Part shown: in pieces, positions 23,521 to 38,098 of the stretch
How positions within the stretch are numbered: the stretch's first letter is position 1
How the letters are laid out: the number at the start of each line of letters is the position of its first letter
Assembly: GCA_002320245.1 (NCBI GenBank)
Contig: DCKD01000044.1
Span: 5,225 to 69,224 of the forward strand
Direction: 5' to 3'
DNA length: 64,000 bases
Source: Lachnospiraceae bacterium UBA1683
Lineage (GTDB): Bacteria; Bacillota; Clostridia; Lachnospirales; Lachnospiraceae
Notes under the pieces: model-generated
What the model was told of the DNA's origin: nothing
Databases searched by the model: none
The model's input: the letters and a program-made list of their open reading frames with translations, nothing else
Program-made: the position numbers and the translations under genes

Positions 23521-24537
23521 ATGAAAGGATTAAAATATCAACTTAAAAGTATTCGCCGCGATAAAATGTGCATTTTGACCTTTCTGCTCCCGGTCATTGT
23601 CGGTATCGCTATCAATCTGCTTTCAGGTGTGAGTTTTCAGTCAATGGGCGAAACCGCATTTGGCGTTTTGGAAAACAATATCTCTGCTGATACGGTCGAA
23701 TGGCTGCAATCAAACGGAACTGTTACGCAATATGAAACGCTCGATGAACTTCGAGAAGCCGTAAACAATCCGTCCACCCAAATGATAGGCGTTCTGCAAA
23801 CTGGTAACGCGATACAGACCTTTCTTTCGGGGGACGAATTAGAGGTAAACAGAAGGATTGCAGATACGCTCCCACAGATTTATGAAAATCGAATAGAACA
23901 GTTGTCGCTTGACAAGACGATCATCCCGGTGAAAACAGATAATAATGAGGGGTTGAAATCTCTTTTAATCGTGCTCGCTTTGGTTACGGCTATGTTTATG
24001 GGCTGTACCTTTAATGCAATGAATATCATCAGTGAGAAAGAGGACGGTATAGAATTTATCAATCAGGTACTTCCTACGACAACAAAATCCTATGTGGTTC
24101 AGAAAATGCTTTTAGGCTTTATTGGAGGTAGTGTTTCAACTATTGTAACTGCATTTATCTGTTTGCGGATAGAGGCAGTACAGATATTACCGTTTTTACT
24201 GATTGTCCTGTTCTCTGCTTATATTTCGGCTTTGATAGGATTGTTCATCGGTTACTTTTCAAATGGACTAATGGTGGGAATTGTTTACATCAAGATCGTA
24301 ATGATTTTGTTTCTTGCTCCGCCTATCTTCTTTTATCTGACGGTTCCAGATAACAGTATCATTTTTATACTTTCGTATCTGATACCGTCAAGTGCAACCT
24401 TTGAGGGCATTATGAATTTGGCAAATGGCAGTACCACAATAGCGTTCAAAGATATTTTTGTTCTTGTTGTTCATTGCATATTTTGGTTTTTGACCTATTT
24501 GCTTATATCGGAACGCCAGAAAAACAGGTATAACTGA
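23521..24537 (+). CDS. ABC-2-type transporter permease (second subunit)
   Basis: 338 aa with the same topology as the preceding permease. Confidence 0.7.
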   Translation: MKGLKYQLKSIRRDKMCILTFLLPVIVGIAINLLSGVSFQSMGETAFGVLENNISADTVEWLQSNGTVTQYETLDELREAVNNPSTQMIGVLQTGNAIQTFLSGDELEVNRRIADTLPQIYENRIEQLSLDKTIIPVKTDNNEGLKSLLIVLALVTAMFMGCTFNAMNIISEKEDGIEFINQVLPTTTKSYVVQKMLLGFIGGSVSTIVTAFICLRIEAVQILPFLLIVLFSAYISALIGLFIGYFSNGLMVGIVYIKIVMILFLAPPIFFYLTVPDNSIIFILSYLIPSSATFEGIMNLANGSTTIAFKDIFVLVVHCIFWFLTYLLISERQKNRYN

Positions 24538-24556: not shown

Positions 24557-24988
24557 ATGGCGGTGAAAACTATGGTGGATATCTTAATTATTGAGTCTGG
24601 GAAGGAAGATGGGATACTAAATGAAATAGTGGATTTTATATCTTCAAGGACACAGTGCCGGGTTATGAACTTACTGCCGAATTTAAATAAAAATCATTCT
24701 GCTGAAGTTTTGTCTTTTGCCGGCATAGAAGTTCGTGTCTATGAGCAGACCGTCTACCAGGATGGAGAATTAGTGCCAATGCCCCACCATGAGTTTTTTA
24801 CGTTACTCTATCTGGCACAGCATCCCGGATGGGTATTCTCGAAAGAACAAATCTATGAGGCAGTATGGAAATCGCCTGGAGATGAGTGTGGATCAGCAGT
24901 GACAAATGTGATCAGCCAGATTCGGAAGAAGATCGGGGATAGGTATATAGAAACTGTAATTAACAGCGGGTATAAATTTGTGGGATAG
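24557..24988 (+). CDS. orphan winged-helix (OmpR/PhoB Trans_reg_C-type) DNA-binding protein, copy 1
   Basis: C-terminus HHEFFTLLYLAQHPGWVFSKEQIYEAVW...VISQIRKKIGDRYIETVINSGYKFVG. The N-terminus is too short (about 50 aa) to be a receiver domain. Confidence 0.8.
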   Translation: MAVKTMVDILIIESGKEDGILNEIVDFISSRTQCRVMNLLPNLNKNHSAEVLSFAGIEVRVYEQTVYQDGELVPMPHHEFFTLLYLAQHPGWVFSKEQIYEAVWKSPGDECGSAVTNVISQIRKKIGDRYIETVINSGYKFVG

Positions 24989-25002
24989 AAAACGAAAGAT
25001 AA

Positions 25003-25363
25003 GGGCATCTGCTAGTGAGACTGGCGGGTGCTTTTTTCTCACAGATATGGTATGCTGTTAGCAGAATTATTTATCGGAGGTACGAGTATGGAAGAACAGC
25101 AGAATCCATTGACTTATGAAATCATCAAAGCGGCGGTTGCCGGAGAGAAATGGGCAACAGAAAAAGTTATTGCACACTACGATTCTTATATTGAAGAACT
25201 CGCCACGGTAAAAGAAAGACAGCCGGACGGCAGCGTGAGAACCTATGTGGACGAGGACATGAAACAGGAGATCATATTGAAGTTGTTGGAGAAGATACTA
25301 GACTTCCCATTGAAGGAAGCGGAGAGGATAGCAGGAGGGAAAACTGAGTTGGAGGCTGGTTAG
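25003..25363. repeat. repeat C, copy 1 (terminator + leader + orf8-like gene; second copy at 30086-30443)
   Basis: GCATCTGCTAGTG..GGCGGGTGCTTTTTTCTCACAGATATGGTATGCTGTTAGCA is shared almost exactly. The coding part is roughly 85% identical by eye. Confidence 0.85.
25088..25363 (+). CDS. Tn916 orf8-like helix-turn-helix protein (conjugative-transposon HTH family), copy 1
   Basis: LTYEIIKAAVAGEKWATEKVIAHYDSYIEEL... is paralogous to 30171-30443 and 44298-44546. Confidence 0.65.
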   Translation: MEEQQNPLTYEIIKAAVAGEKWATEKVIAHYDSYIEELATVKERQPDGSVRTYVDEDMKQEIILKLLEKILDFPLKEAERIAGGKTELEAG

Positions 25364-25384
25364 AGAAGAAGTAGATATACACAA

Positions 25385-25518
25385 AGTTACTTGGAAATTA
25401 AAACCCAGAGCATTGAGGGGTGGCGGTGATGAATGTAATAAGCCAAATCAGGCAGAAGATCGGAGATAGGTACATAGAAACGGCGGTTGGGATCGGGTAT
25501 AAGTTTCAGATTGTGTAA
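25385..25518 (+). pseudogene. 3' fragment of an orphan winged-helix gene
   Basis: It aligns with 34600-34736. TGA replaces the Cys codon of ...EHCGAAV.... Only ...MNVISQIRQKIGDRYIETAVGIGYKFQIV remains open. Confidence 0.75.
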
Positions 25519-25689
25519 TTCTGAGCCGATAGCAGGCATTTGGAAACAGATGTGGCTATCGGCTCTAGTGTTGTGTTAATGATTAGAGAGTTGAGATAAC
25601 CAGCTTTTAGAGGTAAAATAAAAAAGACCAGAGCTATTGCTTGAGATAAATCAAGTCGAATGGAAGAAAAGCCATCAAGGAGGAAATCA

Positions 25690-26364
25690 ATGGTTACAAT
25701 ATATTATGTTGAGGATGATTGGGATATCGCAGAGAATGTAAAAACATATCTGGAAATCCGGCAGATGGAAGTATCTTTATATTATAGTATCGCTGATGCG
25801 AAACAAGCATTACTGATAAAGCGTCCAGACCTCCTTTTGGTGGATCGGAATATGCCAGATGGAAATGGGGATGAAATGTGTAAATGGATTCGCCGCTTAT
25901 GGGGAAATCAGCTTCCAATTCTTTATTTAACGGTTCGGGGAGAAACGGCAGATATTGTTCAGGGATTTCAGGATGGAGCAGATGATTATGTGGTAAAACC
26001 GTTTGAGTTGGAGGTGTTGTATTCCCGTATCCTGGCATTGTTGCGCCGGAGTGGACAAACAAAGGAAACCCGGCTTTTCTGCGATAATCTTTTGCTGGAC
26101 ACAGATAAAATGTCTGTTTTTTGGGAACAGGAAGAAATTCTGTTGAGTCAGCCGGAATATCAGCTGCTCCTTCTGCTGATGGAAAACAAAGGAAAAACGG
26201 TAACCAGAAGACAGCTATTGGAACAGGTATGGGACAGCAATGGAAATTATGTGAATGACAATACATTGACCGTGACAATGAAACGCTTGCGGGAGAAATT
26301 ACACAATCCGACCTGCCTGAAAACCATACGCAGTTTTGGTTATCGACTGGAGGAAAGCATATGA
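25690..26364 (+). CDS. OmpR-family response regulator (TCS-2)
   Basis: IYYVEDD...LLLVDRNMPDGNG...LTVR plus the winged helix TLTVTMKRLREKL...IRSFGYRL. Confidence 0.9.
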   Translation: MVTIYYVEDDWDIAENVKTYLEIRQMEVSLYYSIADAKQALLIKRPDLLLVDRNMPDGNGDEMCKWIRRLWGNQLPILYLTVRGETADIVQGFQDGADDYVVKPFELEVLYSRILALLRRSGQTKETRLFCDNLLLDTDKMSVFWEQEEILLSQPEYQLLLLLMENKGKTVTRRQLLEQVWDSNGNYVNDNTLTVTMKRLREKLHNPTCLKTIRSFGYRLEESI

Positions 26365-27548
26365 CAGAGATAAGGAAACAGAGACTAACAGTTTGGGTGC
26401 CGGTGCTGGTGTGTGTTGTCAGTATTATTGGCATAACAGTTTTTTGGCAGTATGAATACCGGCAGGCTGCCTTTGAACATGTGTCCAAATTTTGTGAAAT
26501 CATCATAGAAAATCATCCGGAAGGAGAGGAGCAGACACTTTCTGCATTGAAACAATATCATACGCTGGCAGAGCAGGAAGTGAAAGGAAATCAGTTTCTG
26601 AAGCAGTATGGATATCGAAATAATGAATTCTGCGAAGGTGTTCTGTGGAACTTTTTCATTCCTTCTGTAGTTTTAATACTTTTGGTGATCTGTGGATTTC
26701 TACTTACTGTATGGCGTATGAATAAGCGTAATCGAATGAGAATAGCGGAACTGACGAGTTATCTGGAGCAGGTCAATGTTGGTGCTGCCGGAACAGTCAT
26801 ACAGGTGAAAGAAGATGAATTTTCTCATCTCCAGGATGAAATATATAAGACAGTTACATCTCTGTATCAGACAAGGGAGGCAGCGGTGCAGGCAAAAGTG
26901 AATTTTGCAAATAATCTGGCAAATATAGCCCACCAATTAAAGACACCGATTACTTCCGCCTTTCTTTCTTTGCAGCTTATGAAGAATACAACACCCAATA
27001 CTTATGGAGAACAGATTGAGAGACAGTTGAATCGGTTAAACAGATTAGAAGAATCATTGTTGACGCTTTCTAAGATTGATGCCGGTACTTTGCATTTAGA
27101 ATTTTCACAGGTGGATATTTACACAGCGTTAAACCTTGCAGCGGAGAATTTGAATGATTTACTGTTGAAAGAGAATGTCTCTGTGGATATTCCAGATCAT
27201 GGGGGTATTGAAATCTATGGAGACATGGAGTGGATAATGGAAGCCCTTATGAATTTGATGAAAAATTGCATGGAGCACTCTAAGCATGGAGGAACGATAC
27301 ATTGTGATTATTCCAGCAATCCGCTTTATGCGGAAATCCTGATATGGGATGATGGAGAGGGCTTTCAGGCAGAAGATATACCACACCTTTTTGAGCGGTT
27401 TTATCGAGGAAAAGGTACTGCCGGAAATGGAATAGGGATTGGATTGTCCCTAGCGCATTCTATTTTTGAGCTGCAGAACGGCAATATTACTGCCCGGAAT
27501 CTGCCAGAAGGCGGAGCGTGTTTTGAAATAAGGGTGTACAGTCACTGA
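26361..27548 (+). CDS. sensor histidine kinase (TCS-2)
   Basis: H-box AHQLKTPI, N-box LMNLMKNCMEHS, G-box GNGIGIGLSLA. Confidence 0.9.
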   Translation: MTEIRKQRLTVWVPVLVCVVSIIGITVFWQYEYRQAAFEHVSKFCEIIIENHPEGEEQTLSALKQYHTLAEQEVKGNQFLKQYGYRNNEFCEGVLWNFFIPSVVLILLVICGFLLTVWRMNKRNRMRIAELTSYLEQVNVGAAGTVIQVKEDEFSHLQDEIYKTVTSLYQTREAAVQAKVNFANNLANIAHQLKTPITSAFLSLQLMKNTTPNTYGEQIERQLNRLNRLEESLLTLSKIDAGTLHLEFSQVDIYTALNLAAENLNDLLLKENVSVDIPDHGGIEIYGDMEWIMEALMNLMKNCMEHSKHGGTIHCDYSSNPLYAEILIWDDGEGFQAEDIPHLFERFYRGKGTAGNGIGIGLSLAHSIFELQNGNITARNLPEGGACFEIRVYSH

Positions 27549-27563
27549 GATGTCACTTTCCTT

Positions 27564-27572
27564 TGTTATAAT
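27564..27572 (+). promoter_or_regulatory. extended -10 element TGTTATAAT upstream of the truncated ABC gene
   Basis: Read directly from the sequence. I found no good -35, which is consistent with an activator-dependent promoter. Confidence 0.4.
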
Positions 27573-27693
27573 GTGACTTGTAAGAAGGATGCTCTGCTTG
27601 CAGAAGCATGATTCGCAAGTCAACGAGGGAAAATGCGAAGCATTTTTTCGAGTGGCAATGAATATCAGCCTATAACAAAAAGGAGAGGATGTC

Positions 27694-28254
27694 ATGGAGA
27701 TACTAAAATGTGAAGGAATCAGAAAAGTATATGGTTCGGGCGAAAACTGTGTTACGGCTTTAGATCGGATCGATTTGTCTGTGGACAAAGGAGAGTTTGT
27801 TGCCATTGTAGGCGCATCCGGTTCAGGAAAGTCTACGCTTTTACATATTCTTGGAAGCGTGGATCAGCCGACAGAAGGAAAAATTGTAGTGGAAGGAACA
27901 GATATTTCTACCATGAACCGGACACAGTCGGCTATTTTCCGGAGAAGAAAAGTGGGGCTGGTCTATCAGTTTTATAATCTGATCCCTACGCTTACCATTC
28001 GGAAAAATATCCTCATGCCGCTTTCTCTGGACAAAAGGAAACCGAACCAGGAGTATTTTGAACAGGTCGTAAACACGTTAGGCATTGCTGATAAGCTGGA
28101 CTTTCTTCCCAACCAGTTATCCGGCGGACAACAGCAGCGTGCAGCCATAGCAAGGTCTTTGATTTACCGACCAGCTCTCTTACTCGCTGATGACTGTGAG
28201 ATAATAGGACTAACAAGGAGAAACCCAATAAAATCAAGGGTTCTATCATGTTAG
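27694..28254 (+). pseudogene. BceA/MacB-type ABC ATPase truncated inside Walker B
   Basis: Normal through GASGSGKST, LSGGQQQR and ALLLAD. At about 28196 it diverges (DCEIIGLTRRN...) where EPTGNLD is expected. No FtsX-type permease follows. Confidence 0.8.
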
Positions 28255-28422
28255 TTCTATTTTTTTGACCGAAAATGAACATGATTTTATGGATTTGGAA
28301 AGGAGATCCCGTCAGTGATTGACTGATTAAAAAATATAGAAAGATAGGGTATAACGAAGAAAGCTGTATCAGCAGAAGATAAAAATAAATACTCAGAAAG
28401 GAAAGTTAAGGGAGGGATAAGA

Positions 28423-28740
28423 ATGATGAGTAGAGAAGTCATGAAGAAAACAATATTACCGATGTCGTTTTTGGCAATCTGGATTTGGATCGCATATAAT
28501 TTTTGTACGTCTTTAGGACAGAATGAATGGTGGAAAATATGGATGGTTATTGGAAGGCCATACGGAATACATAGTCTGTGTGTATGGTTATTACCTAGGG
28601 ATTTTGATATAGGTGGAACCGCCGGAGTTTTGGTAATAAATATAATATTAGGTTGTTTGATTGGTGAAGTAGTGGTTATATGGTATGTATTACGTGCCGT
28701 TTATGTTTTATTTAAATATCTTGTAGACCTGTTAAGATAA
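28423..28740 (+). CDS. small hypothetical membrane protein
   Basis: 105 aa, about 3 predicted TMs, AT-rich. GGAGGG lies upstream. Confidence 0.5.
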   Translation: MMSREVMKKTILPMSFLAIWIWIAYNFCTSLGQNEWWKIWMVIGRPYGIHSLCVWLLPRDFDIGGTAGVLVINIILGCLIGEVVVIWYVLRAVYVLFKYLVDLLR

Positions 28741-28778
28741 ATAATTTCATGATTTTAAATTGTGTATAGATATTTATT

Positions 28779-28890
28779 GGCGTGCCGTCTCACTGGCTTG
28801 CGTACCATAAATTGATACAATGCACCCTTGGCAGTCAGAGGGTTCAAATTTAACGATTACCCATACTCAAAAAACGATAGGGTGCATTTG
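28779..28890. repeat. repeat A, copy 2
   Basis: Matches 15971-16082. The right arm of the hairpin has decayed (AGGGTTCAAATT). Confidence 0.9.
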
Positions 28891-28976
28891 GAAGAGGAAT
28901 GGAAAATTCCAAACTTGTATGTTATACTGGATACTGAAAATAACGAGACAAACATGAAGTTGTGAGGTGCATGAGT

Positions 28977-29177
28977 ATGAAAAAGTATGAATACAAATTT
29001 GTTGAAGTAAAGAAACAAGCAGGGTTAGCAGGCATTACGTTTGAAGAATGTAAAAAAGTAATAATTTCAGAAGCAGAACAAGGCTGGCGATTGAAACAAA
29101 TTGTTACGCCAATCAACGAGAAATCAGGGGTTAATAGTCCTGTATGTTATCAAATTATTTTTGAAAGAGAAGCATAA
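28977..29177 (+). CDS. DUF4177-domain protein
   Basis: MKKYEYKFVEV...EAEQGWRLKQIV...YQIIFERE fits the DUF4177 pattern as I recall it. Confidence 0.6.
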   Translation: MKKYEYKFVEVKKQAGLAGITFEECKKVIISEAEQGWRLKQIVTPINEKSGVNSPVCYQIIFEREA

Positions 29178-29206
29178 AATAAATTGGAAGTTATTGAGAG
29201 GTAATT

Positions 29207-29443
29207 ATGAAAATCGTAAAAATTTTATTATCTATTATGATAATACTTTTCGCTATATTAGAATTAGTAAAAATTCTTCCGCTTGATATAGCAAATCCTA
29301 TTATGCTTACATCCCTTGCCACTCTTTTACTGTTAAGAAGTGTAGAATATAAAAACAGCAGAGAAAAAAGAGGCTTTATTCTTACCTGTTTAACCGCAGT
29401 ATTTGTCTATGTTGTTGTGATTTATAATGTTTTTATAGGTTAA
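29207..29443 (+). CDS. small two/three-TM membrane protein (possibly DUF3953-like)
   Basis: 78 aa and hydrophobic. The family call is from memory only. Confidence 0.45.
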   Translation: MKIVKILLSIMIILFAILELVKILPLDIANPIMLTSLATLLLLRSVEYKNSREKRGFILTCLTAVFVYVVVIYNVFIG

Positions 29444-29543
29444 GAAAATTCCAGTTGATAGGGGAGCAACAGACAAAATGTTTGTTGCTTTTCTTTTTTG
29501 ATGAGAATATAAAATAAAACGATTACCACAAGGTTTGTTTAAG

Positions 29544-30078
29544 AAACTTATCAATATAGACCAATAAAGTTATCTTTCATGACAACGAATAATAAGAAAT
29601 CTATGGTAACATCCTACCCGTAGTGGTAAATTGTTCTACAGGAAAGGGTGCGAAACATGGAAAATGAAGTATACGAAAAGGACTATGGAGAAGAATTCCG
29701 GGAGAGAAGCGATAAGGCAAAGGGAAAGGATTTTCTGGACACCTTGATGGATGTTGGATTCTTTCAGGCGTATAAAGAAGAAATGGACAAAATCCCAAAG
29801 CGTGTGGTGCCCAAAGAAAAAGCGGATTATGAATACCTGCTTGGTGAGTGTGACGCTTACGTCAGGCAGTTTGGCGGAAAAATCCGGGGCGAGGTAGATT
29901 ACCAGAAATGGCAGGCTACCATTGATCTGTACCTGGAGCATTTTGAGTTTTGTGACCGGGAGGCGCTGGCGCTGCTAAAAGAGATCGCAGAGCGGGCGGA
30001 GAACGTGACGTTTTCGATGAAAGATGGGTTGCTTCGGATGTCGGTGTTTATTGGATATTTTGATGAGGTGTATTAAGC
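29544..30078. repeat. repeat B, copy 2
   Basis: Matches 16656-17190. Confidence 0.9.
29657..30076 (+). CDS. hypothetical protein (139 aa), paralog of 16769-17188
   Basis: Near-identical translation. Confidence 0.7.
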   Translation: MENEVYEKDYGEEFRERSDKAKGKDFLDTLMDVGFFQAYKEEMDKIPKRVVPKEKADYEYLLGECDAYVRQFGGKIRGEVDYQKWQATIDLYLEHFEFCDREALALLKEIAERAENVTFSMKDGLLRMSVFIGYFDEVY

Positions 30079-30085
30079 GGGATGA

Positions 30086-30443
30086 GAGCATCTGCTAGTG
30101 TGAGGACTGGCGGGTGCTTTTTTCTCACAGATATGGTATGCTGTTAGCATCAGCTTGGAGGTATGGAGCTATGGGCGATCAGCAGGATACATTGACTTAT
30201 GAAATTATCAAAGCGGCTGTTGCCGGGGAAAAGTGGGCAACGGAAAAAGTCATTGCACACTACGATTCTTATATTGAGAAACTTTCCACAGTGAAAGAAA
30301 AGCAGCCTGACGGCAGCGTGAGAACCTATGTGGATGAGGATTTGAAGCAGGAGATAGCATTGAAACTGTTGGAGGAGATACCGAACTTTTCGATGGAGGA
30401 AGCGGAGAGGACAGCGGAAGGGGAAACAGAGAAGGAGGAATAA
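30086..30443. repeat. repeat C, copy 2
   Basis: Matches 25003-25363. Here it directly abuts repeat B. Confidence 0.85.
30171..30443 (+). CDS. Tn916 orf8-like helix-turn-helix protein, copy 2
   Basis: MGDQQDTLTYEIIKAAVAGEKWATEKVIAHYDSYIEKL... Confidence 0.65.
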   Translation: MGDQQDTLTYEIIKAAVAGEKWATEKVIAHYDSYIEKLSTVKEKQPDGSVRTYVDEDLKQEIALKLLEEIPNFSMEEAERTAEGETEKEE

Positions 30444-30562
30444 AAGGGTGGGGTAAACTTCTGAAAAGAAGCCCCACCTTTTCGCGTGACTAAGAGGGTG
30501 TCTTGAACTTTACCTGCAAAACGAAAAATGTGGTTTTACCTTTTCGCAAAAGAGGTTTTATT

Positions 30563-30733
30563 GCTAACTTCCATAAATAATCCTACTCAAACCCTGTTAT
30601 TAGCTAAAACAAAAGGTTTTTAAGTTTTTTGCTGAATAACATACCTACTCATTTATCCACCAACAAAATTGCGAACAACTCAGTATTTATCAGGGTTTTA
30701 AGCGTTTGAGTAGGAAAATGATGGGAAGTTAGC
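30563..30733. repeat. 171-bp segment bounded by imperfect 34/43-nt inverted repeats
   Basis: Left arm GCTAACTTCC..CCTACTCAAAC..CCCTG. The right arm is its reverse complement, with blocks of 10, 11 and 5 identical nt and an 8-nt insertion. Confidence 0.7.
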
Positions 30734-30757
30734 ATTTATGTATCAGATAGGTTTCTA

Positions 30758-30805
30758 TTGACAAAAGGTAAAAGTACGTCTATACTGTACTTAACAAATA
30801 AGTAC
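30758..30805 (+). promoter_or_regulatory. promoter TTGACA-17-TATACT with overlapping AGTAC-rich operator palindromes (GTACTTA-5-TAAGTAC)
   Basis: -35 at 30758-30763, -10 at 30781-30786, and a perfect 7-bp inverted repeat at 30787-30805. This is the likely autoregulatory site of the GntR/YtrA-type repressor downstream. Confidence 0.6.
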
Positions 30806-30839
30806 GTTAAGTACAAAAAGTACGATTGAGGGGTGTTGT

Positions 30840-31211
30840 ATGGAGATTATCATAAGTAATAGCAGCGACAAACCCATATACGAACAGATATGTCTGCAAA
30901 TAAAGAGTCTGATTATGGATGGCACCTTGTCATCGGGAGAAGCACTACCGTCCATGCGTTCATTAGCAAAAGATTTGCATATTAGCGTTATAACTGTTCA
31001 ACGAGCCTATGAGGATTTAACTCGTGACGGTTTTATTGAAACCGTATCTGGCAAGGGAAGTTTCGTTGCATCACAAAACCGTGAATTCATACAGGAAGAA
31101 CAACTGCGGATAGCGGAGGAATTATTGCAGAAGGCTGCGGAGATTGGTCGAACTCATGGGATTCCTTATGAACAATTGGCTAACATCTTAAAACTATTTT
31201 ATGAAGATTAA
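30840..31211 (+). CDS. GntR-family (YtrA-subfamily) transcriptional regulator
   Basis: PIYEQICLQIKSLIMDG...LPSMRSLAKDLHISVITVQRAYEDL, with a short C-terminus as in the YtrA type. Confidence 0.88.
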   Translation: MEIIISNSSDKPIYEQICLQIKSLIMDGTLSSGEALPSMRSLAKDLHISVITVQRAYEDLTRDGFIETVSGKGSFVASQNREFIQEEQLRIAEELLQKAAEIGRTHGIPYEQLANILKLFYED

Positions 31212-31225
31212 TGTGAGGTAGAAAA

Positions 31226-32092
31226 ATGGAAGATAACAGTATTGTTGTTCGTGGATTAAGCAAAAGTCTTGGAGACTTTTTGCTGGATAATGTTTCATTT
31301 GAAGTCCCTAAAGGAAGAATTGTTGGCTTTATAGGCGAAAACGGAGCTGGGAAAAGCACCACAATCAATCTCATCTTAAATGAGTTGAAAAAGGATGCTG
31401 GTACAATTGAGGTGCTTGGTAAAGATAATATGACATTATCATTTAAAAATGAAATCGGAGTGGTCTTTGACGAGTGTAATTTCCATGAAGTATTTAATGC
31501 TGCGGATATAGGAAAAATCCTCTCTGGTGTGTATTCTACATGGGATAAGGGATTGTATCAGCGCTACTTGAAACAATTTAATCTTCCGGCAAACAAGCCC
31601 ATTGGTTCATTTTCAAAAGGAATGAAAATGAAACTTTCGATTATATGTGCGATGGCCCATAAACCTAAATTGCTAATTCTGGACGAAGCGACAACTGGCC
31701 TTGATCCGGTTGTAAGGGATGAAGTGTTGGATTTGTTTTTAGAATTTATTCAAGATGAAGAACATTCCTTGTTCTTTTCATCACACATAATTTCCGATAT
31801 TGAGAAGATTGCGGATTATGTCATTCTTATTCATCGGGGTAAAATTATATTTGAGGAGCAAAAGGATAATCTGATTTATAACTTTGGTATAGCGAAATGC
31901 AGACAGGAGCGTTTCACATCTGTTTCTTCAGATGATTATCTAATATACAGAAAGACGAACGTGTGCATGGAATGCTTGATTCCAGATAAAGATTCTTTTA
32001 GAAAAAAATACAAAGATGTTGTTGTTGATAACGCAACATTGGAAGATATTATGCTTTTTTATATCAAAGGAGGTGTCTCATGCAAGGATTGA
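31226..32092 (+). CDS. ABC transporter ATP-binding protein
   Basis: GENGAGKST, FSKGMKMKL and LLILDEATTGLD. Confidence 0.9.
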   Translation: MEDNSIVVRGLSKSLGDFLLDNVSFEVPKGRIVGFIGENGAGKSTTINLILNELKKDAGTIEVLGKDNMTLSFKNEIGVVFDECNFHEVFNAADIGKILSGVYSTWDKGLYQRYLKQFNLPANKPIGSFSKGMKMKLSIICAMAHKPKLLILDEATTGLDPVVRDEVLDLFLEFIQDEEHSLFFSSHIISDIEKIADYVILIHRGKIIFEEQKDNLIYNFGIAKCRQERFTSVSSDDYLIYRKTNVCMECLIPDKDSFRKKYKDVVVDNATLEDIMLFYIKGGVSCKD

Positions 32093-32712
32093 TTTATAAG
32101 GATGTGTGTCTTTTCTTCAAAAGCATTGAAAAGAGACTGCTGGTAATTGTGGGAGTAGTAATTATTTTTCTGATAGTTGAGGCAGGAAGTTATGCCGGGT
32201 TTATGGCATCAGTCATGTTGGCGATGACAGTTGGTATTCAAAGTGTTTTGAGTTTTGCAAGTGATGAAAAGGCAAATTGGAAAAAATATCAAATGTCTAT
32301 GCCTATAAGTAACTATGGTGTTGTGGCGAGTAAATATACTTCAATAGTTTTGATTCTGTTACCGTGCATCATGGGGAGTGTAATCTTAAATTTACTTTCC
32401 AGCGTTATATACAGCGAGTGGAATATAATGCTTTGGGAGCTATCTATTTTAGCTTCTATACTTGTTCCACTTATTTGGGCGGCAATTTGTATGCCATTGA
32501 CTTACTGGTTTGGGTTTCGATCAGCTCAGACAATGGGACTGATTTGTATATTTCCGATGATTTATTTTATCAAGTTTTTTGAAGACGGTCCAGGATTAAC
32601 TGCCTTACCGGATTCGATGGCATCTTACATTTTAGGGCTTTGTGTTATATGTCTGATATTGTTCTTTCTTTCGTTCCTTTTGAGTGTTGTTGGATATTCA
32701 AGAAAAAAATAA
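32080..32712 (+). CDS. ABC-2 transporter permease
   Basis: 210 aa, about 6 TMs. It overlaps the ATPase stop by 13 nt. Confidence 0.7.
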   Translation: MQGLIYKDVCLFFKSIEKRLLVIVGVVIIFLIVEAGSYAGFMASVMLAMTVGIQSVLSFASDEKANWKKYQMSMPISNYGVVASKYTSIVLILLPCIMGSVILNLLSSVIYSEWNIMLWELSILASILVPLIWAAICMPLTYWFGFRSAQTMGLICIFPMIYFIKFFEDGPGLTALPDSMASYILGLCVICLILFFLSFLLSVVGYSRKK

Positions 32713-32768
32713 CGAGAGGATATTGATGGCAGATAGGAGACCTTGGCTATTGAGTACTAAAATGGTGG

Positions 32769-33176
32769 GTGGTGATATTGGTTGGAACGATAGAAATTGT
32801 GATGAGGAAGATTGCTCCCTCCGGGAGCGTTTCAGAAACTGTCCTGGTTTCACTGCCGGGTGCGAAATCCCAGGAAACCACCCATAGTTCCGACATCCTC
32901 ACATTCCCCAACCTGGAAATCCGCATCAAAGAACAGATTGTCTACCACGATAACCACCCTGTCCCTCTCACCCACCATGAGTTCTTTACCTTACTCTACC
33001 TAGCCCAACATCCGTCTTGGGTTCTTAGCAAAGAGCAAATCTACGAAGCGGTCTGGAAAGCGGACCCGGAACATTGCGGAGCTGCGGTGGCGAATGTGGT
33101 GTATTCCCTTAGAAGGAAGATCGGAGATGGCTACATCGAAACTGTGGTTGGGAGCGGGTATCGGTTTGTGGGGTAG
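32769..33176 (+). CDS. orphan winged-helix DNA-binding protein, copy 2
   Basis: LTFPNLEIRIKEQIVYHDNHPVPLTHHEFFTLLYLAQHPSWVLSKEQIYEAVW...GSGYRFVG. The start is uncertain (GTG 32769 or ATG 32799). Confidence 0.75.
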   Translation: MVILVGTIEIVMRKIAPSGSVSETVLVSLPGAKSQETTHSSDILTFPNLEIRIKEQIVYHDNHPVPLTHHEFFTLLYLAQHPSWVLSKEQIYEAVWKADPEHCGAAVANVVYSLRRKIGDGYIETVVGSGYRFVG

Positions 33177-33301
33177 TATAATAGACAGGAAGTAGTAGCC
33201 TTTTGGGGGCAATGCTTCCTGTTCTTTTTTAATTTATATTTTACTATATGTAAGAAATATGTTATACTGAAAGTCAGAAATTTTGGGAAGGCGGTGAGCA
33301 G

Positions 33302-33520
33302 GTGGGAAAGAGTAAATACACATTTGATAGCAAGATCCATATATATCGAGCAACTAAGCGTATGACACAGCAGGAGCTTGCCGATTTGGTGGGTGTATCA
33401 CGGCAAACCATTATGCAGCTTGAACGAAACCGCTATAATCCGTCTATGTTGTTGTCATACAGTATCGCAAAGGTATTTGATGTTACAATCGAAGATTTAT
33501 TTGATTTCAAGGAGGAATAG
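33302..33520 (+). CDS. small XRE-family HTH regulator (YozG-like)
   Basis: MTQQELADLVGVSRQTIMQLERNRYNPSMLLSYSIAKVFDVTIEDLF. The apparent start is GTG. Confidence 0.8.
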   Translation: MGKSKYTFDSKIHIYRATKRMTQQELADLVGVSRQTIMQLERNRYNPSMLLSYSIAKVFDVTIEDLFDFKEE

Positions 33521-33522
33521 CT

Positions 33523-33861
33523 ATGCAGACATTTTATGAGTTTATCTGGAACTTGTTCAATAATAAAATGCTTTTCATTGTGGGCGCCTGGGCAGGGATA
33601 CCACTTACCCTTATATTGCTTATTATGTTTGCCCGAAAGAAAAATCGAGATGAGCGGGGATGGAAAATTATAGGTAAAGCCAGCATCATTTCTTTTATTT
33701 ACCTTATATTAGTGGTGAATCTTTTCGCAAAAATTTTGGGATATGTGGTAGATACCCATGAAGTACACTATCTTTTTGTAGGAAACGCAATTCAGTGGCT
33801 TTATGATACCGTGATAATAGTCGAAATCGTTGCTATGTTGATTTTAAGAAAAATTGAATAA
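33523..33861 (+). CDS. membrane protein partnered with the small XRE regulator
   Basis: 112 aa, about 4 TMs, starting 2 nt after the regulator's stop. Confidence 0.6.
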   Translation: MQTFYEFIWNLFNNKMLFIVGAWAGIPLTLILLIMFARKKNRDERGWKIIGKASIISFIYLILVVNLFAKILGYVVDTHEVHYLFVGNAIQWLYDTVIIVEIVAMLILRKIE

Positions 33862-34011
33862 CCTCACTTATTCCGAATGTGAATCCATCCCTCCCACGAT
33901 CATACGACCATAGGATGTTTGTGGAAGAAATTTTTATTTCAAAAAGTATGAAATAGTTTACATTATAAAAGAAATAAATTATAATAGCGGTGTCGAGAAG
34001 GAGGTGATAAT

Positions 34012-34302
34012 ATGGTCGGAACGGTTATCGAGAGTATCATAATTCTTGGCGCGATAGTTTCTTCTTATTTGCTTTTGAAGAAAAATCCATCAAAGGCGCG
34101 CAAAACATTTGCAATTTCCTTTGTACTTGCATTTGCTGTTATTATTGCATTTGCTCTTGCACAGCTTAGTGTACAATTCAAGTTGCTGGAAATTACGTTG
34201 TCGTATTCTCCAGTAGAGGTTCTTGCGCTTATGGCAATTGTTTATTGGATTGCCTTCGTGTCAGCAAAAGGAACACTTTTTGACAAAGTAATCGGAGCAT
34301 AG
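34012..34302 (+). CDS. small hypothetical membrane protein
   Basis: 96 aa, about 3 TMs, with GGAGG upstream. Confidence 0.5.
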   Translation: MVGTVIESIIILGAIVSSYLLLKKNPSKARKTFAISFVLAFAVIIAFALAQLSVQFKLLEITLSYSPVEVLALMAIVYWIAFVSAKGTLFDKVIGA

Positions 34303-34352
34303 TGTTTTAAGCTCTAATGTAATGAGGCGGTGATCTATATGGGAAAGTCATA

Positions 34353-34736
34353 GTGCTGACTGTATCTGATACGGAAGAACATATCTTTAACAAAGTGATG
34401 GCGGCTCTGACCGATGATACTGTATCAGTAATCCCCTATGAGTCGCCACAGCCTGTCCTCACCTTCCCCAACCTGGAAATCCGCACCAAAGAACAGACTG
34501 TCTACCACAATGGCATTCCCGTTCCTCTCACCAACCATGAGTTCTTTACCTTACTCTACCTAGCCCAACATCCATCCTGGGTTCTCTCGAAAGAGCAAAT
34601 CTACGAAGCAGTCTGGAAAGAAAACCCGGAGCATTGTGGGGCGGCGGTGGCGAATGTGGTGTATTCCCTTAGACGGAAGATCGGTAATGGGTACATAGAA
34701 ACGGTGGTTGGGAGCGGGTATCGGTTTGTGGGGTAA
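34353..34736 (+). CDS. orphan winged-helix DNA-binding protein, copy 3
   Basis: About 90% identical by eye to copy 2 over the last 90 aa or so. The start is uncertain (GTG 34353 or ATG 34398). Confidence 0.75.
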   Translation: MLTVSDTEEHIFNKVMAALTDDTVSVIPYESPQPVLTFPNLEIRTKEQTVYHNGIPVPLTNHEFFTLLYLAQHPSWVLSKEQIYEAVWKENPEHCGAAVANVVYSLRRKIGNGYIETVVGSGYRFVG

Positions 34737-35006
34737 AAGAACGTCCCGGAGGGGCTATTATAAATGCTGCTTTGGGACGTTCCCAAATTGAAAATATCGT
34801 TGAATTTGTACTAACAAAATGCTATAATGGCATTGATTTTACAGAATGAAAGAGGTGAGCTTATGCGTGCCAATAAAAAAGGTCAAAATGAAGAGTGGCT
34901 CCATGCAAAACCAGTAGACAGCGACATTTGCATGGAGTAATTAAGGTCGCTTAATGAATATGCTGGTTTTGCAACTTGACTATTTATAATCAAGGAGGAA
35001 GCCTGC

Positions 35007-35270
35007 ATGAAATATATGAATGCGAAAGATATTCTTCCGGACTTGCTGGTTAAGGAACTGCAGGGTTACATACAAGGAGGCTATATTTATATACCTGCGA
35101 GTGAAAATCAGCATCGACGCTGGGGAGAAGTATCTGGATATAAAGAGGAATTACGGCAAAGAAACATTGAGATAGTCAAAGCGTATAACAGTGGTTTTTC
35201 TATCGAATATCTTGCTGAAAAGTATTGTCTTTCCATTTCCAGTATTCGGAAGGTCATTTATCAGAAATAA
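35007..35270 (+). CDS. small DNA-binding-like protein (CD3324-family-like)
   Basis: AAGGAGG RBS. DILPDLLVKELQGYIQGGYIYIP...RNIEIVKAYNSGFSIEYLAEKYCLSISSIRKVIY. The family name is from memory. Confidence 0.5.
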   Translation: MKYMNAKDILPDLLVKELQGYIQGGYIYIPASENQHRRWGEVSGYKEELRQRNIEIVKAYNSGFSIEYLAEKYCLSISSIRKVIYQK

Positions 35271-35400
35271 TTAATAGAAGGGGCTGCTACATGCAGTCTC
35301 TTTTTTTACCCAAAACATTACCGAAACATTCTGTGGATTGCTATGATAAAAAAAGCCAGGTAAAATATGAGCAAACAACAGAAAGTATGAGGTAAATCAA

Positions 35401-36030
35401 ATGGCTAACTCGGAAAAAATATATCCTCGTTCAGGGGATAAAGAAACAGTGTATTTAAAACCGGTTATTTCAAATCCTAATATATCAGTTGGCGAATTCA
35501 CCATGTATAATGATTTTGTTAATGATCCGATGCGGTTTGAAAGAAATAGTGTGCTGTATCAGTACCCGATTAATCATGACAAATTGATAATCGGTAAATT
35601 TTGTTCGATTGCTTGTGGTGCGAAGTTTATTTTTAACAGTGCAAATCATACCTTATCTTCGGTTTCCACATATCCGTTTCCGATATTTTTTGAAGAATGG
35701 GGTTTGAATATCAAGGATGTTGCTGCTGCATGGGACAATAAAGGAGATATTATAATCGGCAATGATGTTTGGATTGGATATGAGGCAGTAATCATGGCTG
35801 GTGTTACCGTTGGTGACGGTGCGATTATCGGAACTCGTGCTGTTGTTACAAAAGATGTGCCACCATATACAATCGTAGGTGGTGTGCCAGCGAAACCAAT
35901 AAGAAAACGCTTTGACAATGAAACTTTAGATGAACTACTTAAAATAAGATGGTGGGATTGGCCAGAAGAAAAGATAGCAAGAAATATTCATGCTATCCAA
36001 TCTGGTTGTTTAAAACAGTTGCAAGGATAA
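35401..36030 (+). CDS. vat: Vat-family streptogramin A O-acetyltransferase (xenobiotic acyltransferase, hexapeptide repeat)
   Basis: The hallmarks run the full length: YPRSGDKETVYLKP..., IGKFCSIA, NHTLSSVSTYPF, IGNDVWIGYEAVIMAGVTVGDGAIIG, VGGVPAKPIRKRF and IRWWDW. Confidence 0.88.
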   Translation: MANSEKIYPRSGDKETVYLKPVISNPNISVGEFTMYNDFVNDPMRFERNSVLYQYPINHDKLIIGKFCSIACGAKFIFNSANHTLSSVSTYPFPIFFEEWGLNIKDVAAAWDNKGDIIIGNDVWIGYEAVIMAGVTVGDGAIIGTRAVVTKDVPPYTIVGGVPAKPIRKRFDNETLDELLKIRWWDWPEEKIARNIHAIQSGCLKQLQG

Positions 36031-36054
36031 GAAAAAGTGAGGGGAAAGAAGACT

Positions 36055-36333
36055 ATGTTAAAAAATGGGCGGTATGGAATGATAATGACAATGAAAGTTG
36101 TATCACTTCTTTTTCTGATAATATGTTGTATAGGCGGGATAATGGTAGTTTCTAATAAAGAAAAGTACGAAAGCAAAAATTACTCATTTTCTGACGCTAT
36201 GGACAAAAGTGAGTTTGAAAAAATGTTGGATATAAATGAAATTCCCTACAAAATACGTTCGACTGACACTATATCTGTAACAAAAGACTATATAGATGAG
36301 GCTGATAAAGTCTATGACATTATCTTTGAATAA
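36055..36333 (+). CDS. small hypothetical secreted/anchored protein
   Basis: N-terminal TM (VVSLLFLIICCIGGIMVV). I recognise no family. Confidence 0.45.
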   Translation: MLKNGRYGMIMTMKVVSLLFLIICCIGGIMVVSNKEKYESKNYSFSDAMDKSEFEKMLDINEIPYKIRSTDTISVTKDYIDEADKVYDIIFE

Positions 36334-36487
36334 AGTTGTAGGTTATGTAAAATTACCGATTGTCGCCCCTGTTCTTTTATACATAATGGGAAGGACAAGT
36401 CCGCAGACAAAATGAGGTTCGGTGGGCTGCGTTCCCATGCTCTCATTTCACTCTGGATTTCGTTTTGAAGTTTAGAGGTATTTTTAT

Positions 36488-36721
36488 GTGCAGCACAAGG
36501 AAGTAGGCGATCTCTCATTGGGAAATAATCAACCGGTGTATTGTGTTGCTGCATTTGGGTTGATAAGAAGTGCCATTATGTATTTCAAGATGTTACAGTT
36601 TGAGAATGACTTTGCATTTATCGTGAGATCCATATGGTTGTTAGCGGTTACGGGATATATGGGCCTAATGGCATACCAGGCGTATGCGTTAGAGAAAAAA
36701 TGGCGAGTGGCTGTAAAATAG
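36488..36721 (+). CDS. small hypothetical membrane protein (weak call)
   Basis: Non-ATG start with no clear RBS. It is retained only because it fills the gap on the cassette strand. Confidence 0.3.
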   Translation: MQHKEVGDLSLGNNQPVYCVAAFGLIRSAIMYFKMLQFENDFAFIVRSIWLLAVTGYMGLMAYQAYALEKKWRVAVK

Positions 36722-36749
36722 GTAACTCAAGAGTTAAAGGAGGGCGGAG

Positions 36750-37067
36750 ATGTTAATGCAAATGAATATAAAACGTCAACCTGTCATCCAGCGAGGTAAT
36801 CTTACCATTGATCCACAGTGCTGTACGGTCACATTGGCCGGACAGAAAATTAGTTTGTATCCCAAGGAATTTGATGTCCTACATTTACTTGTACAATATC
36901 CTGGTTGGGTGCTTTCTCCGGAACAGATTTATAAGGCTGTGTGGCAAGAAGATGCGATTGGTTGTGAGCGTGTGGTCTATAACGTGATTTGCCAGATTAG
37001 AAGGAAACTGAAGAACCCGGATTTGATCCAGACGGTTATTGGGCGAGGATATAAGTTTGTGGAATAA
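36750..37067 (+). CDS. orphan winged-helix DNA-binding protein, copy 4 (divergent)
   Basis: AAGGAGGG RBS. LYPKEFDVLHLLVQYPGWVLSPEQIYKAVW...VICQIRRKL...IGRGYKFVE. Confidence 0.8.
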   Translation: MLMQMNIKRQPVIQRGNLTIDPQCCTVTLAGQKISLYPKEFDVLHLLVQYPGWVLSPEQIYKAVWQEDAIGCERVVYNVICQIRRKLKNPDLIQTVIGRGYKFVE

Positions 37068-37120
37068 GTTAATCCCTCGGAGCAGTGAAAAGAACTGTCC
37101 AGGGGGATTTTTGCATATAA

Positions 37121-37246
37121 GCCAGTTGGAAACAAAACTTCAGAGCATTACGGGGCAGCGGTGGCGAATGTGGTATATTCCCTTAAACGAAAGATTGAAG
37201 ATGGGTAGAAACGGTGGTTGGGAGCGGATATCGGTTTGTGGGGTAA
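37121..37246 (+). pseudogene. 3' fragment of an orphan winged-helix gene (copy-3-like)
   Basis: It aligns with 34605-34736. A 3-nt loss turns GGGTACATAGAAACG into GGGTAGAAACG (TAG), and the frame is broken further on. Confidence 0.75.
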
Positions 37247-37249
37247 AAG

Positions 37250-37295
37250 AACATCCCAGAGTAGCAATGTAGAATTGCTGCTTTGGGATGTTTTC
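37250..37295 (+). terminator. rho-independent terminator retained with the fragment
   Basis: GAACATCCCAGAG...CTTTGGGATGTT followed by TTT. The homologous hairpin follows copy 3 at about 34740-34785. Confidence 0.6.
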
Positions 37296-37393: not shown

Positions 37394-38095
37394 ATGGATA
37401 TGATTTTGAAAACAACAAATCTCTGCAAATCATTCAGCGGGCAGACAGTCGTAAATAACATATCGCTGAACATTGAAAAAAATTCCGTCTATGGATTGTT
37501 AGGACCAAACGGAGCCGGAAAATCCACAACACTCAAAATGATAACAGGTATTTTGAAGCCCACATCTGGGAGTATCGAGTTTGACGGCCACGCATGGAAG
37601 CGGAGCGACTTAAACCATATTGGAGCATTGATTGAAATGCCGCCGCTTTATGAGAATTTAACCGCCTATGAAAATCTGAAAGCTAGGTCAACCCTTTTAG
37701 GGCTGACAGACAAAAGGATTGAGGAAGTGCTTCAAATTGTCCGGTTGACAGAAACAGGCAGGAAAAGAGCCGGACAGTTTTCACTTGGAATGAAGCAGCG
37801 GCTTGGAATTGCGATTGCATTATTAAACAGTCCGAAGCTGCTTATTCTCGACGAGCCTACAAACGGTCTTGATCCGGTAGGGATTGAAGAACTTAGGGAG
37901 CTTATCCGTTCATTTCCGGAAAAAGGAATTACCGTTATTTTATCCAGTCATATTCTTTCCGAGGTGCAGCAGACAGCAGACCATATCGGCATTATTGCGG
38001 GTGGTATCTTAGGCTATGAGGGGAAACTTAATGCAAATGAAAATTTGGAACAGCTTTTTATGGACGTTGTGAAAAGCAATCACAGGGAGGGCTAA
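37394..38095 (+). CDS. lantibiotic-protection ABC transporter ATP-binding subunit (LanF-like)
   Basis: GPNGAGKSTTLKMITG, FSLGMKQRLGIA and LLILDEPTNGLD. It is followed by MutE/MutG-type permeases. Confidence 0.8.
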   Translation: MDMILKTTNLCKSFSGQTVVNNISLNIEKNSVYGLLGPNGAGKSTTLKMITGILKPTSGSIEFDGHAWKRSDLNHIGALIEMPPLYENLTAYENLKARSTLLGLTDKRIEEVLQIVRLTETGRKRAGQFSLGMKQRLGIAIALLNSPKLLILDEPTNGLDPVGIEELRELIRSFPEKGITVILSSHILSEVQQTADHIGIIAGGILGYEGKLNANENLEQLFMDVVKSNHREG

Positions 38096-38098
38096 AGT

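Follow-up and report, generated by a model that had tools for sequence, protein, structure and literature searches.

Why should one small gene close one unrelated operon after another? The question is raised by a 64,000-nucleotide (nt) stretch of the Lachnospiraceae bacterium UBA1683 (contig DCKD01000044.1, positions 5,225 to 69,224), called the window below. It holds an array of gene cassettes punctuated by a gene for a stand-alone DNA-binding domain, an OmpR-type winged helix (the orphan winged-helix gene). The original prediction, made from the sequence alone, described four intact genes and two 3' fragments on the same strand. The corresponding open reading frames (ORFs) were found, all on the plus strand, and the six elements are given here in window coordinates, with protein lengths in amino acids (aa).

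24557..24988, plus strand: orphan winged-helix copy 1, 143 aa, subtype c1; PF00486 only (E 1.5e-16)
about 25388..25518, plus strand: stub f1, decaying 3' fragment of a winged-helix gene
32769..33176, plus strand: orphan winged-helix copy 2, 135 aa; PF00486 only (E 5.6e-18)
34353..34736, plus strand: orphan winged-helix copy 3, 127 aa; PF00486 only (E 1.1e-17); conserved segment from 34456
36750..37067, plus strand: orphan winged-helix copy 4, 105 aa, divergent subtype c4 with almost no N-terminal extension; PF00486 only (E 3.9e-21)
37123..37246, plus strand: stub f2, 3' fragment of a copy-3-type gene

The genes had been said to encode the winged helix alone, without a receiver domain, and this was borne out. 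Trans_reg_C (PF00486) was the sole Pfam domain in all four intact copies, with scores of 60.6-75.3 bits (Pfam cutoff 26.2), and Response_reg was matched in none of them. The neighboring true response regulator (25660-26364) matched both Response_reg and Trans_reg_C. A tblastn search of the window revealed no additional orphan copies, only the DNA-binding domains of full response regulators. Copies 2 and 3, judged by eye to be about 90% identical, shared 88-89% of their DNA over the last 280 nt and 69% of their protein sequence overall. Copy 1 was 65% identical to them at the DNA level and ~50% at the protein level. For copy 4, the protein identity to the other copies was about 40-42%, close to the ~40% expected. 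The stubs f1 and f2 aligned in register with the 3'-terminal 125-130 nt of the intact genes and carried internal stops or frameshifts; stubs decay as pseudogenes.

Each intact copy was the final gene of a functionally unrelated operon and was followed by a terminator, as had been proposed; both the cassettes and the hairpins were confirmed. The gaps between the orphan genes and their upstream genes (19-56 nt, read from the sequence) held no terminator, so the orphan genes are likely co-transcribed with their cassettes. A long, imperfect hairpin of 40-47 nt was found within 10 nt of the end of every copy and stub (6/6), with folding energies of -20 to -32 kcal/mol and z values of -3.1 to -9.0. 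A U-tract was present after four of the six.

24997..25039, plus strand: terminator hairpin after copy 1, -25 kcal/mol, then a T-run
25523..25565, plus strand: hairpin after f1, -30 kcal/mol
33184..33223, plus strand: terminator after copy 2, from folding energy
34739..34782, plus strand: hairpin after copy 3, a homologue of the f2 hairpin (repeat family D5)
37068..37114, plus strand: terminator after copy 4, from folding energy
37248..37294, plus strand: hairpin after f2, homologous to the copy 3 hairpin

By k-mer analysis, the hairpins belonged to several unrelated terminator-like families with T-runs and had no shared core. The copy 1 hairpin was homologous to a terminator-promoter region normally found 3' of a 142-aa backbone gene, and the 45-nt segment 25019-25063 was identical to 30105-30149. 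Together with its hairpin, f2 formed a ~175-nt direct repeat with 34609-34785, flanking cassette 4.

The orphan genes are real and under purifying selection. Over 93 conserved codons, the ratio of nonsynonymous to synonymous substitution rates (dN/dS) was 0.19 between copies 2 and 3 (dS 0.37) and 0.10-0.13 between copy 1 and copies 2/3, where dS was saturated. An AlphaFold2 model of copy 3, based on a 58-sequence alignment, showed a canonical OmpR winged helix at residues 35-125, with a predicted local distance difference test score (pLDDT) above 90. It comprised strands at 35-57, helices at 61-72, 80-88 and 96-110, and a hairpin at 115-125; ahead of it lay a single helix predicted with low confidence and a disordered linker. 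The nearest solved structures were the effector domains of CarR, ArlR, PhoB, PhoP and SaeR. With hhalign, the orphan protein mapped to positions 118-231 of a 235-column response-regulator profile, which take in the DNA-binding domain, the linker and no more of the receiver than its last helix. Only 30-55 residues lie ahead of the winged-helix domain, and they belong to a few unrelated types. Upstream of the orphan genes, no receiver-coding sequence was found in any frame. The copies are thus not response regulators with misplaced starts, a possibility raised with the original prediction: Pfam, hhalign and AlphaFold2 all showed no receiver. All aligned members have a cysteine in the loop that joins helix 2 to the recognition helix (Cys95 of copy 3, around 34635). 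OmpR-type domains do not usually carry one there, and it could conceivably serve a redox function.

The orphan family comprises several hundred proteins of roughly 101-146 aa, mostly from Lachnospiraceae. The homology search was saturated, with at least 486 matches among 498 candidates. The 120 matches listed were 109-146 aa long with PF00486 as their sole domain, and many of those listed were ~90% identical to the query solely across its C-terminal 73%. Relatives carry only the generic public name 'winged helix-turn-helix domain-containing protein', and no NCBIfam model reached its cutoff for the orphan protein.

As it has no receiver domain, the orphan protein is probably active whenever its operon is transcribed; this is the weakest step of the explanation developed below. 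The recognition helices were identical in copies 2 and 3 and different in copies 1 and 4, so copies 2 and 3 most likely share a common operator rather than binding cassette-specific ones. It had been suggested, as an alternative, that each cassette carries its own stand-alone regulator. The selection acting on the proteins is in keeping with this, while regulators specific to a cassette are hard to reconcile with copies 2 and 3 having the same recognition helix. Enriched k-mers in 50 non-redundant downstream regions were terminator stem families only, and six cassette promoter regions had nothing in common beyond AT-rich words. The promoter motif GGTATGCTGTWAGCA was rejected as a general operator, having only three sites (19496, 25049, 30135); it precedes an HTH_16 gene at two of them and a response-regulator gene at one.

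The arrangement was found again in dozens of genome and metagenome contigs, where the same gene flanks different cargo, as a survey of relatives had been expected to reveal. Metagenome contigs with close homologues carried co-oriented cassettes, each closed by an orphan Trans_reg_C gene, often with a 139-aa gene and an HTH_16 gene interspersed. Among other things, their cargo included ABC transporters paired with OmpR- or LytTR-type two-component systems or with GntR regulators. Some cassettes with an orphan gene or a 3' stub consisted of a single gene, for a CPBP protease, an XRE-membrane protein or a secreted 140-aa protein. The compared loci are numbered with an L below. A 6.6-kb block common to L001-L004 and L006 (97.5-99.6% identity) was sharp at both ends, and beyond its right end (...CGCAAAAGAGG) a different cassette followed in every locus. 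Further cassette orders were seen in L007, L053 and L054. A fixed cassette order, which had been named as speaking against the prediction, was thus not observed; the order varied between loci.

Among species-representative genomes, 39 loci were detected, nearly all in Clostridia and most in Lachnospiraceae; their genera included Faecalicatena, Dorea, Blautia, Anaerostipes, Bariatricus and Hungatella. These loci had up to six copies or stubs per 20 kb, on one strand except for three weak response-regulator-like matches. The backbone genes co-occurred in most close loci and did not do so in distant ones. A plasmid collection yielded distant response regulators and one Subdoligranulum record with several orphan copies (L052, OY725878.1, Subdoligranulum variabile, Oscillospiraceae; 16550-24789), at 44-59% protein identity and with one copy inverted, so the orphan family and its multi-copy habit reach beyond Lachnospiraceae. 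A pair of c4-type gene and stub was conserved in L026, L050, L017 and L034. L002 had conjugative-element-type large proteins upstream of the array, and hence some arrays may lie in conjugative elements. In two loci (L004, 16821-20093; L054, 3435-6557), a receiver-only gene of 114 aa stood before an ABC cassette ending in an orphan gene. It may be a response regulator split by cassette insertion, and a clue to the origin of the orphan family.

Comparison of closely related loci placed strain differences inside the orphan gene itself. In three near-identical strains (at least 99.76% identity downstream), one and the same gene 3' half is preceded by a different 5' half and a different upstream cassette each time. 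In L057, 99.76% identical to the window rightward over 12.6 kb, a copy-2-type 5' half (~93% identical to copy 2) was fused at 34456 to the copy 3 3' half, and cassette 3 was absent. The same chimaera, with the same junction and again without cassette 3, was present in L022. In L054 and L056, a third N-terminal type and another upstream cassette stood on the copy 3 3' half, with 99.8% identity from 34557. Both also had an IS630-like insertion sequence (IS) element (HTH_29/DDE_3; 6297-7806 in L054) at a TA inside the orphan gene, splitting it at the equivalent of 34557. The stubs have intact counterparts elsewhere. L002, L018, L019 and L020 carried an intact gene at the f1 position, before the 25660-28254 cassette, and its 3' ~115 nt corresponded to f1. 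L021, L043, L004 and L007 carried one before the lantibiotic resistance cassette, and its 3' end corresponded to f2.

Over all loci, 52 of 263 breakpoint clusters fell in the gene and its terminator, against 4.6% expected (4.3-fold enrichment); the endpoints are not independent, and the p-value is therefore only indicative. Other linkers also gave sharp junctions: the 142-aa gene, the tail of HTH_16, the flavodoxin leader and the right-backbone edge at 42566. L053, from a near-identical strain, corresponded to the window minus 12,888 bp (16656-29543); direct repeats of the 142-aa gene, 533 bp long and 94% identical, lie on either side of this segment. The HTH_16 tail boundary was identical to the nucleotide in at least six contexts, after which different cassettes followed. 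One and the same cassette had a left end that varied by locus (25392-25403, 25532 or 25563). The conserved winged-helix 3' segment had been proposed to mark, and perhaps mediate, cassette exchange. It does mark boundaries, and junctions lie inside it; a dedicated site-specific mechanism was not supported, and the other linkers serve as junctions as well.

A nucleotide profile of the 3' 300 nt of the gene detected ~23 3' stubs, with starts at model positions 124-260. For five cassette types the starts were as follows.

CPBP protease cassette: stub start at about model position 190
XRE-membrane protein cassette: stub start at model position 146
secreted 140-aa protein cassette: stub start at model positions 124-140
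copy-4-type cassette: stub start at model positions 159-173
HTH_16 joined to a stub: stub start at model position 132 or 169

The starts thus differ between cassette types and are about the same within a type, as would be expected if each type had been captured illegitimately once and had then spread. A single site-specific breakpoint was rejected: f1 and f2 start at almost the same codon, but the 23 stubs start at scattered positions. Of the idea that the fragments retain exactly the 3' end plus terminator, as expected from breakpoints within the gene, the register and the kept hairpin were upheld and a common starting point was not. The 5' half of f1 was 63-75% identical to the references, and its hairpin was 94% identical to those of L002 and L018.

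The explanation towards which we lean, taken as a whole, is rather probable in our view, and starts from the anatomy, selection, recurrence and junction positions described so far. The six elements are paralogues, four functional and two decaying, of a stand-alone OmpR/PhoB-type DNA-binding family associated with mobile genetic elements. The array sits in the cargo region between the 3' end of a rum-type methyltransferase gene and a phi1207.3/phi-m46.1-like prophage. Its mosaic would be the work of homologous recombination, with conserved linkers as portable sites of exchange, and 3' stubs would be left by the occasional illegitimate capture. The ~280-nt winged-helix segment, 85-94% identical among copy-2/3-type genes within and between genomes, would provide the portable homology. 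RecA-type recombination between such segments would insert, delete or replace whole cassettes, and other linkers (the 142-aa gene, HTH_16 with its tail, the flavodoxin leader) would act alike. Rare illegitimate or Campbell-type joins would bring in new cargo, duplicating or truncating the gene and leaving a 3' stub with its terminator. The stub would then act as the right-hand homology arm, so that the cassette type can spread. The repeat around cassette 4 is the signature expected of a Campbell-type insertion, and would allow double-crossover insertion beside any copy-3-type gene.

Several observations weigh against this explanation. Copies 1 and 4 have at most 65% DNA identity to the copy-2/3 type, and only the latter are similar enough to recombine efficiently. 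About 80% of the homology breakpoints, whose endpoints are not independent events, lie outside the orphan gene. Against ~23 3' stubs stand at most two 5' fragments, a bias not expected from simple homologous recombination. The regions downstream of the copies and the cassette promoters yielded no operator motif. The join of HTH_16 to a winged-helix 3' half arose independently in the window and in L036, and is left unexplained. The conserved 3' segment may reflect protein constraint alone, with recombination there as a by-product. Recombination between linkers accounts only partly for three features: the excess of 3' stubs, the repeated joining of HTH_16 to a stub, and the unchanging tail boundary.

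The orphan genes might instead be ordinary conserved accessory regulators with no particular role in exchange, and the array a product of accretion in a cargo hotspot of a mobile element. We regard this as unlikely, though it deserves to be taken seriously. Purifying selection on the proteins and the decay of the stubs agree with it, as do the majority of breakpoints outside the gene and the equally sharp junctions at the other linkers named above and at the edge at 42566. It leaves unexplained, however, why nearly every unrelated cassette, even one with a single gene, ends in an orphan gene or a stub, why breakpoints are enriched 4.3-fold, and why three near-identical strains differ exactly within the orphan gene. 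The array could also be read as integron-like, with the gene 3' end and hairpin acting as an attC-like site, the HTH_16 tail end (...CGCAAAAGAGG) as an attI-like site, and a recombinase encoded elsewhere on the element acting in trans; the winged-helix protein might then be an accessory DNA-binding factor that marks or bends the site. The tail boundary, nucleotide-identical in at least six contexts with varied cassettes behind it, is what such a system would give. So are the closure of every cassette by the gene 3' end and a 40-47-nt imperfect hairpin, the retention of 3' stubs only, and the single orientation of all window copies and of most loci. Yet no recombinase or transposase family was found in ORFs of at least 140 aa between 12.5 and 50 kb of the window, and no integrase, resolvase or transposase in the window island. 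Nor was a recombinase present within 10 kb of the looked-up gene in L001-L012 and L053-L057, unrelated IS elements aside. Scattered stub starts (model positions 124-260), the variable left end of one cassette (25392-25403, 25532, 25563), the unrelated terminator-like hairpin families with T-runs, the stops and substitutions gathered by the stubs, and a 142-aa backbone protein without a recombinase-like fold all speak against integron-like capture as well, and we consider it improbable. With no recombinase, no core site and no fixed junction, homologous recombination is favored over it.

Two further explanations find still less room. Independent integrative elements could each have entered the 3' end of an orphan gene site-specifically, bringing a replacement 3' end, and thereby have accreted in tandem. 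Stubs displaced beyond the inserted DNA are the classic signature of 3'-end integration, and the island lies at a known integration hotspot. However, no cassette carries an integrase, no att core is repeated, stub lengths differ, and inserts can be as small as ~0.5 kb with one gene; the lack of recombinase genes largely refutes this scenario, to which we assign very little probability. Least credible of all is the view of the copies as response regulators that have degenerated or been mis-annotated, pseudogenes left over from decayed two-component systems. The alignment of the N-terminus with the last receiver helix and linker would suit this idea, and so would the copy-1-type N-termini, which by eye resemble the first strand and helix of a receiver, and the receiver-only gene before one cassette in L004 and L054. 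Against it stand intact frames with dN/dS of 0.1-0.2, hundreds of relatives of similar length, a confidently folded domain, and upstream DNA devoid of receiver-coding sequence in any frame. The idea is refuted for the present genes, which may nevertheless have originated from response regulators in evolution.

The linkers and cassettes on which recombination would act are arranged in the window as follows.

11262..12518, plus strand: rum-type RNA (uracil-5)-methyltransferase gene (Pfam tRNA_U5-meth_tr), last core gene before the island
15975..16635, plus strand: backbone copy A, with promoter, 5' leader hairpin and flavodoxin gene (16126-16635; Pfam Flavodoxin_4)
16760..17188, plus strand: 142-aa backbone gene, copy A (repeat family D2), the left 533-bp repeat of the 12.9-kb polymorphism seen against L053
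17237..19410, minus strand: block of DUF2000, EamA transporter and AraC regulator (domain matches)
19604..24537, plus strand: cassette 1, with response regulator, histidine kinase, ABC ATPase and two permeases (profile matches)
25088..25363, plus strand: HTH_16 (Tn916 orf8-like) backbone gene, copy A (PF12645, E 5e-25)
25660..28254, plus strand: cassette with response regulator, histidine kinase and truncated ABC ATPase (27694-28254, covering model positions 1-167 of 221)
28783..30555, plus strand: backbone copy B, with leader, small ORFs (DUF4177 etc.), 142-aa gene (29648-30076), HTH_16 (30171-30443) and a tail ending sharply at ...CGCAAAAGAGG
30556..30734, no strand: insertion of 179 nt resembling a miniature inverted-repeat transposable element (MITE), with imperfect terminal inverted repeats TGCTAACTTCC...GGAAGTTAGCA
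30840..32712, plus strand: cassette 2, with GntR regulator, ABC ATPase and ABC2 permease (profile matches)
33302..34302, plus strand: cassette 3, with XRE regulator and two small membrane proteins (profile matches)
35007..36721, plus strand: cassette 4, with Mor-like protein, Vat-like acetyltransferase (35401-36030) and two small ORFs (profile matches)
37394..42438, plus strand: lantibiotic resistance system lanFEG-lanI-lanRK, the last cassette, without its own orphan gene
42566..45333, mixed strands: right backbone, with XRE, tandem repeats, sigma-70 region-4 protein, short HTH_16 and DUF3825

Positions 1-12518 are core chromosome (lrgAB, pyrH, frr, uppS, cdsA, dxr, rseP and others), and the island after the rum gene has a lower GC content than the core. 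The 3' end of rum is an integration hotspot, the site of phi-m46.1 (PMC4288039). The arrays of L003 and L006 likewise lie directly downstream of the rum gene. Right after it in the window comes a low-GC segment (36-39%) of three genes (12820-15955). Its 551-aa protein (13446-15101) matched HEC-07, a candidate anti-phage defense family (E 1e-97), and the 184-aa and 259-aa neighbors had no family match.

Position 15975 is the sharp left end of a block common to many loci. The leader that begins there is duplicated, upstream of the flavodoxin gene (15975-16082) and of the DUF4177 gene (28783-28890), and holds a promoter, a terminator-like hairpin and a repeated GGGTGCATTT motif. From these features it looks like an attenuator. 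An Rfam search of the whole window matched the leader hairpin to no known riboswitch and returned one unrelated small RNA only, Clostridiales-1 (RF01699, 102 bits), at 5565-5734 on the minus strand between cdsA and dxr. The 142-aa backbone protein had no Pfam, NCBIfam or PADLOC match, and its model (pLDDT 86) had no significant fold match in the PDB. As a hidden recombinase or sigma factor it was rejected, having no family match and no recombinase-like fold. Its family is unannotated, and relatives of 236-249 aa form clusters of thousands of members.

In L003, the DUF2000/EamA/AraC block sits between the 139-aa gene and HTH_16, and the site of cassette 1, the junction of the AraC block and HTH_16, is empty. 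HTH_16 copy A lacks the usual tail and is fused directly to stub f1. The 25660-28254 cassette has lost its FtsX permease and its winged-helix gene. Its ABC ATPase is truncated after the signature region; since homology to six other loci with the cassette stops at 28193, this point marks an illegitimate junction by which those two genes were removed. The MITE-like element, with a likely TTTAT target duplication, sits precisely where the HTH_16 tail meets the GntR cassette; L053 and L055 also have it, and in L002 the site is empty.

Judged by their gene content, most cassette operons are predicted antimicrobial-peptide or antibiotic resistance modules. The acetyltransferase of cassette 4 is of a predicted Vat/CatB-like hexapeptide type; at 244.8 bits it scored below the NCBIfam Vat cutoff of 300. 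The lantibiotic system scored above all three LanFEG cutoffs (TIGR03740, 380 bits, cutoff 309.75; TIGR03732, 188, cutoff 145; TIGR03733, 130, cutoff 117), and has a Spa1_C immunity protein domain.

The left boundary of the right backbone at 42566 was sharp in seven loci. The backbone contains an XRE gene (42703-43074, minus strand), a sigma-70 region-4 gene (43877-44311) and HTH_16 (~44298-44546). Between the divergent XRE and sigma region-4 genes lie ~2.7 tandem copies of a 98-99-nt unit (43561-43830), which may be regulator-binding repeats of the element's switch region. From ~50 kb, the window carries a prophage replication module with a DUF2800 nuclease, an Enc34-type single-stranded DNA-binding protein, a family A polymerase and an SNF2 helicase. 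Overlapping contigs (L058) extend the prophage with a D5 primase, S-adenosylmethionine (SAM) synthetase, HNH endonuclease, SymE-like toxin, ParB-methylase and C5 methylase. Its DNA polymerase was 53-57% identical to enzymes of human-gut phages and streptococcal Javan prophages, and the phage collection contained no close DNA relative of the right flank. A 246-aa protein at 62375-63115 has a C-terminal PemK/MazF toxin domain.

Transporter-based defenses against lantibiotics, bacitracin-type peptides and host peptides are numerous in gut Lachnospiraceae. The array suggests how such resistance operons could mix between strains and genera, via common portable homology. The conserved 280-nt segment offers an anchor for cassette amplification by polymerase chain reaction or for metagenome mining, as attC does for integrons. 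The orphan protein represents a large, unstudied family of receiver-less OmpR-type proteins, and a target common to its members may tie the expression of the cargo to mobile-element biology. Were the integron-like reading true, mobile elements of gut Clostridia would carry a dedicated operon-capture platform for antimicrobial-peptide resistance, a Gram-positive counterpart of attC.

How does the array compare with known systems? Like integron arrays, it has co-oriented unrelated cassettes that each end in a recurring element with an imperfect hairpin, a constant boundary at a conserved platform, resistance-rich cargo and a strain-variable order. Unlike them, it has variable junctions, and neither of the defining integron features was found, namely an adjacent tyrosine recombinase (IntI) and a conserved attC core with precise crossover. 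Moreover, each of its cassettes is an entire operon with its own promoter and terminator, its recurring element is a selected protein-coding gene, and the mechanism would be homologous rather than site-specific. The orphan protein itself shares the fold and sequence family of its DNA-binding domain with OmpR/PhoB response regulators. It differs in having no receiver, no phospho-acceptor aspartate and no need for a cognate kinase, in its invariant cysteine before the recognition helix, and in being encoded by the last gene of an operon.

Conjugative elements of the SXT/R391 family have variable regions and hotspots that evolve by homologous recombination. With these and with Tn916/CTn1-type elements, the array has in common a conserved backbone and interchangeable modules (ABC transporters, two-component systems, GntR/Xre regulators), in a mosaic that is explained by recombination between shared segments. 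A Tn916-type regulatory module, with an opposite-strand XRE, a sigma-like protein and HTH_16, is present, and neither a Tn916-type conjugation module nor a tyrosine or serine recombinase was found in the window. The difference is that here one small gene repeats inside the variable region and delimits each module.

The streptococcal prophages phi-m46.1 and phi1207.3 carry resistance genes, with the cargo at their left end. The array resembles phi-m46.1 in its position beside the rum 3' end (PMC4288039). Its right flank, together with the overlapping contigs, has the listed gene set of phi1207.3: family A DNA polymerase, DUF2815-type single-stranded DNA-binding protein, D5 primase, SNF2 helicase, SAM synthetase and cytosine methylase (PMC4260502). 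In contrast to both prophages, the cargo here is a long multi-cassette array, and the prophage attachment sites and integrase lie beyond the window. The last cassette (37394-42438) is a lanFEG-I-RK system of the kind that passages of one report describe for gut commensals, in association with genes of Tn916-type and conjugative elements; those passages mention no upstream array, orphan gene or cassette shuffling (PMC10793476).

Full-text literature searches yielded no description of the arrangement. Accessory modules of this kind are known from Tn916/CTn1-type elements, such as those of Clostridioides difficile (PMC3383454), and the lantibiotic system and the mosaic cargo of mobile elements are likewise known already. 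New here are the repeated orphan gene, which delimits the cassettes, and the evidence for exchanges inside it as a source of differences between strains.

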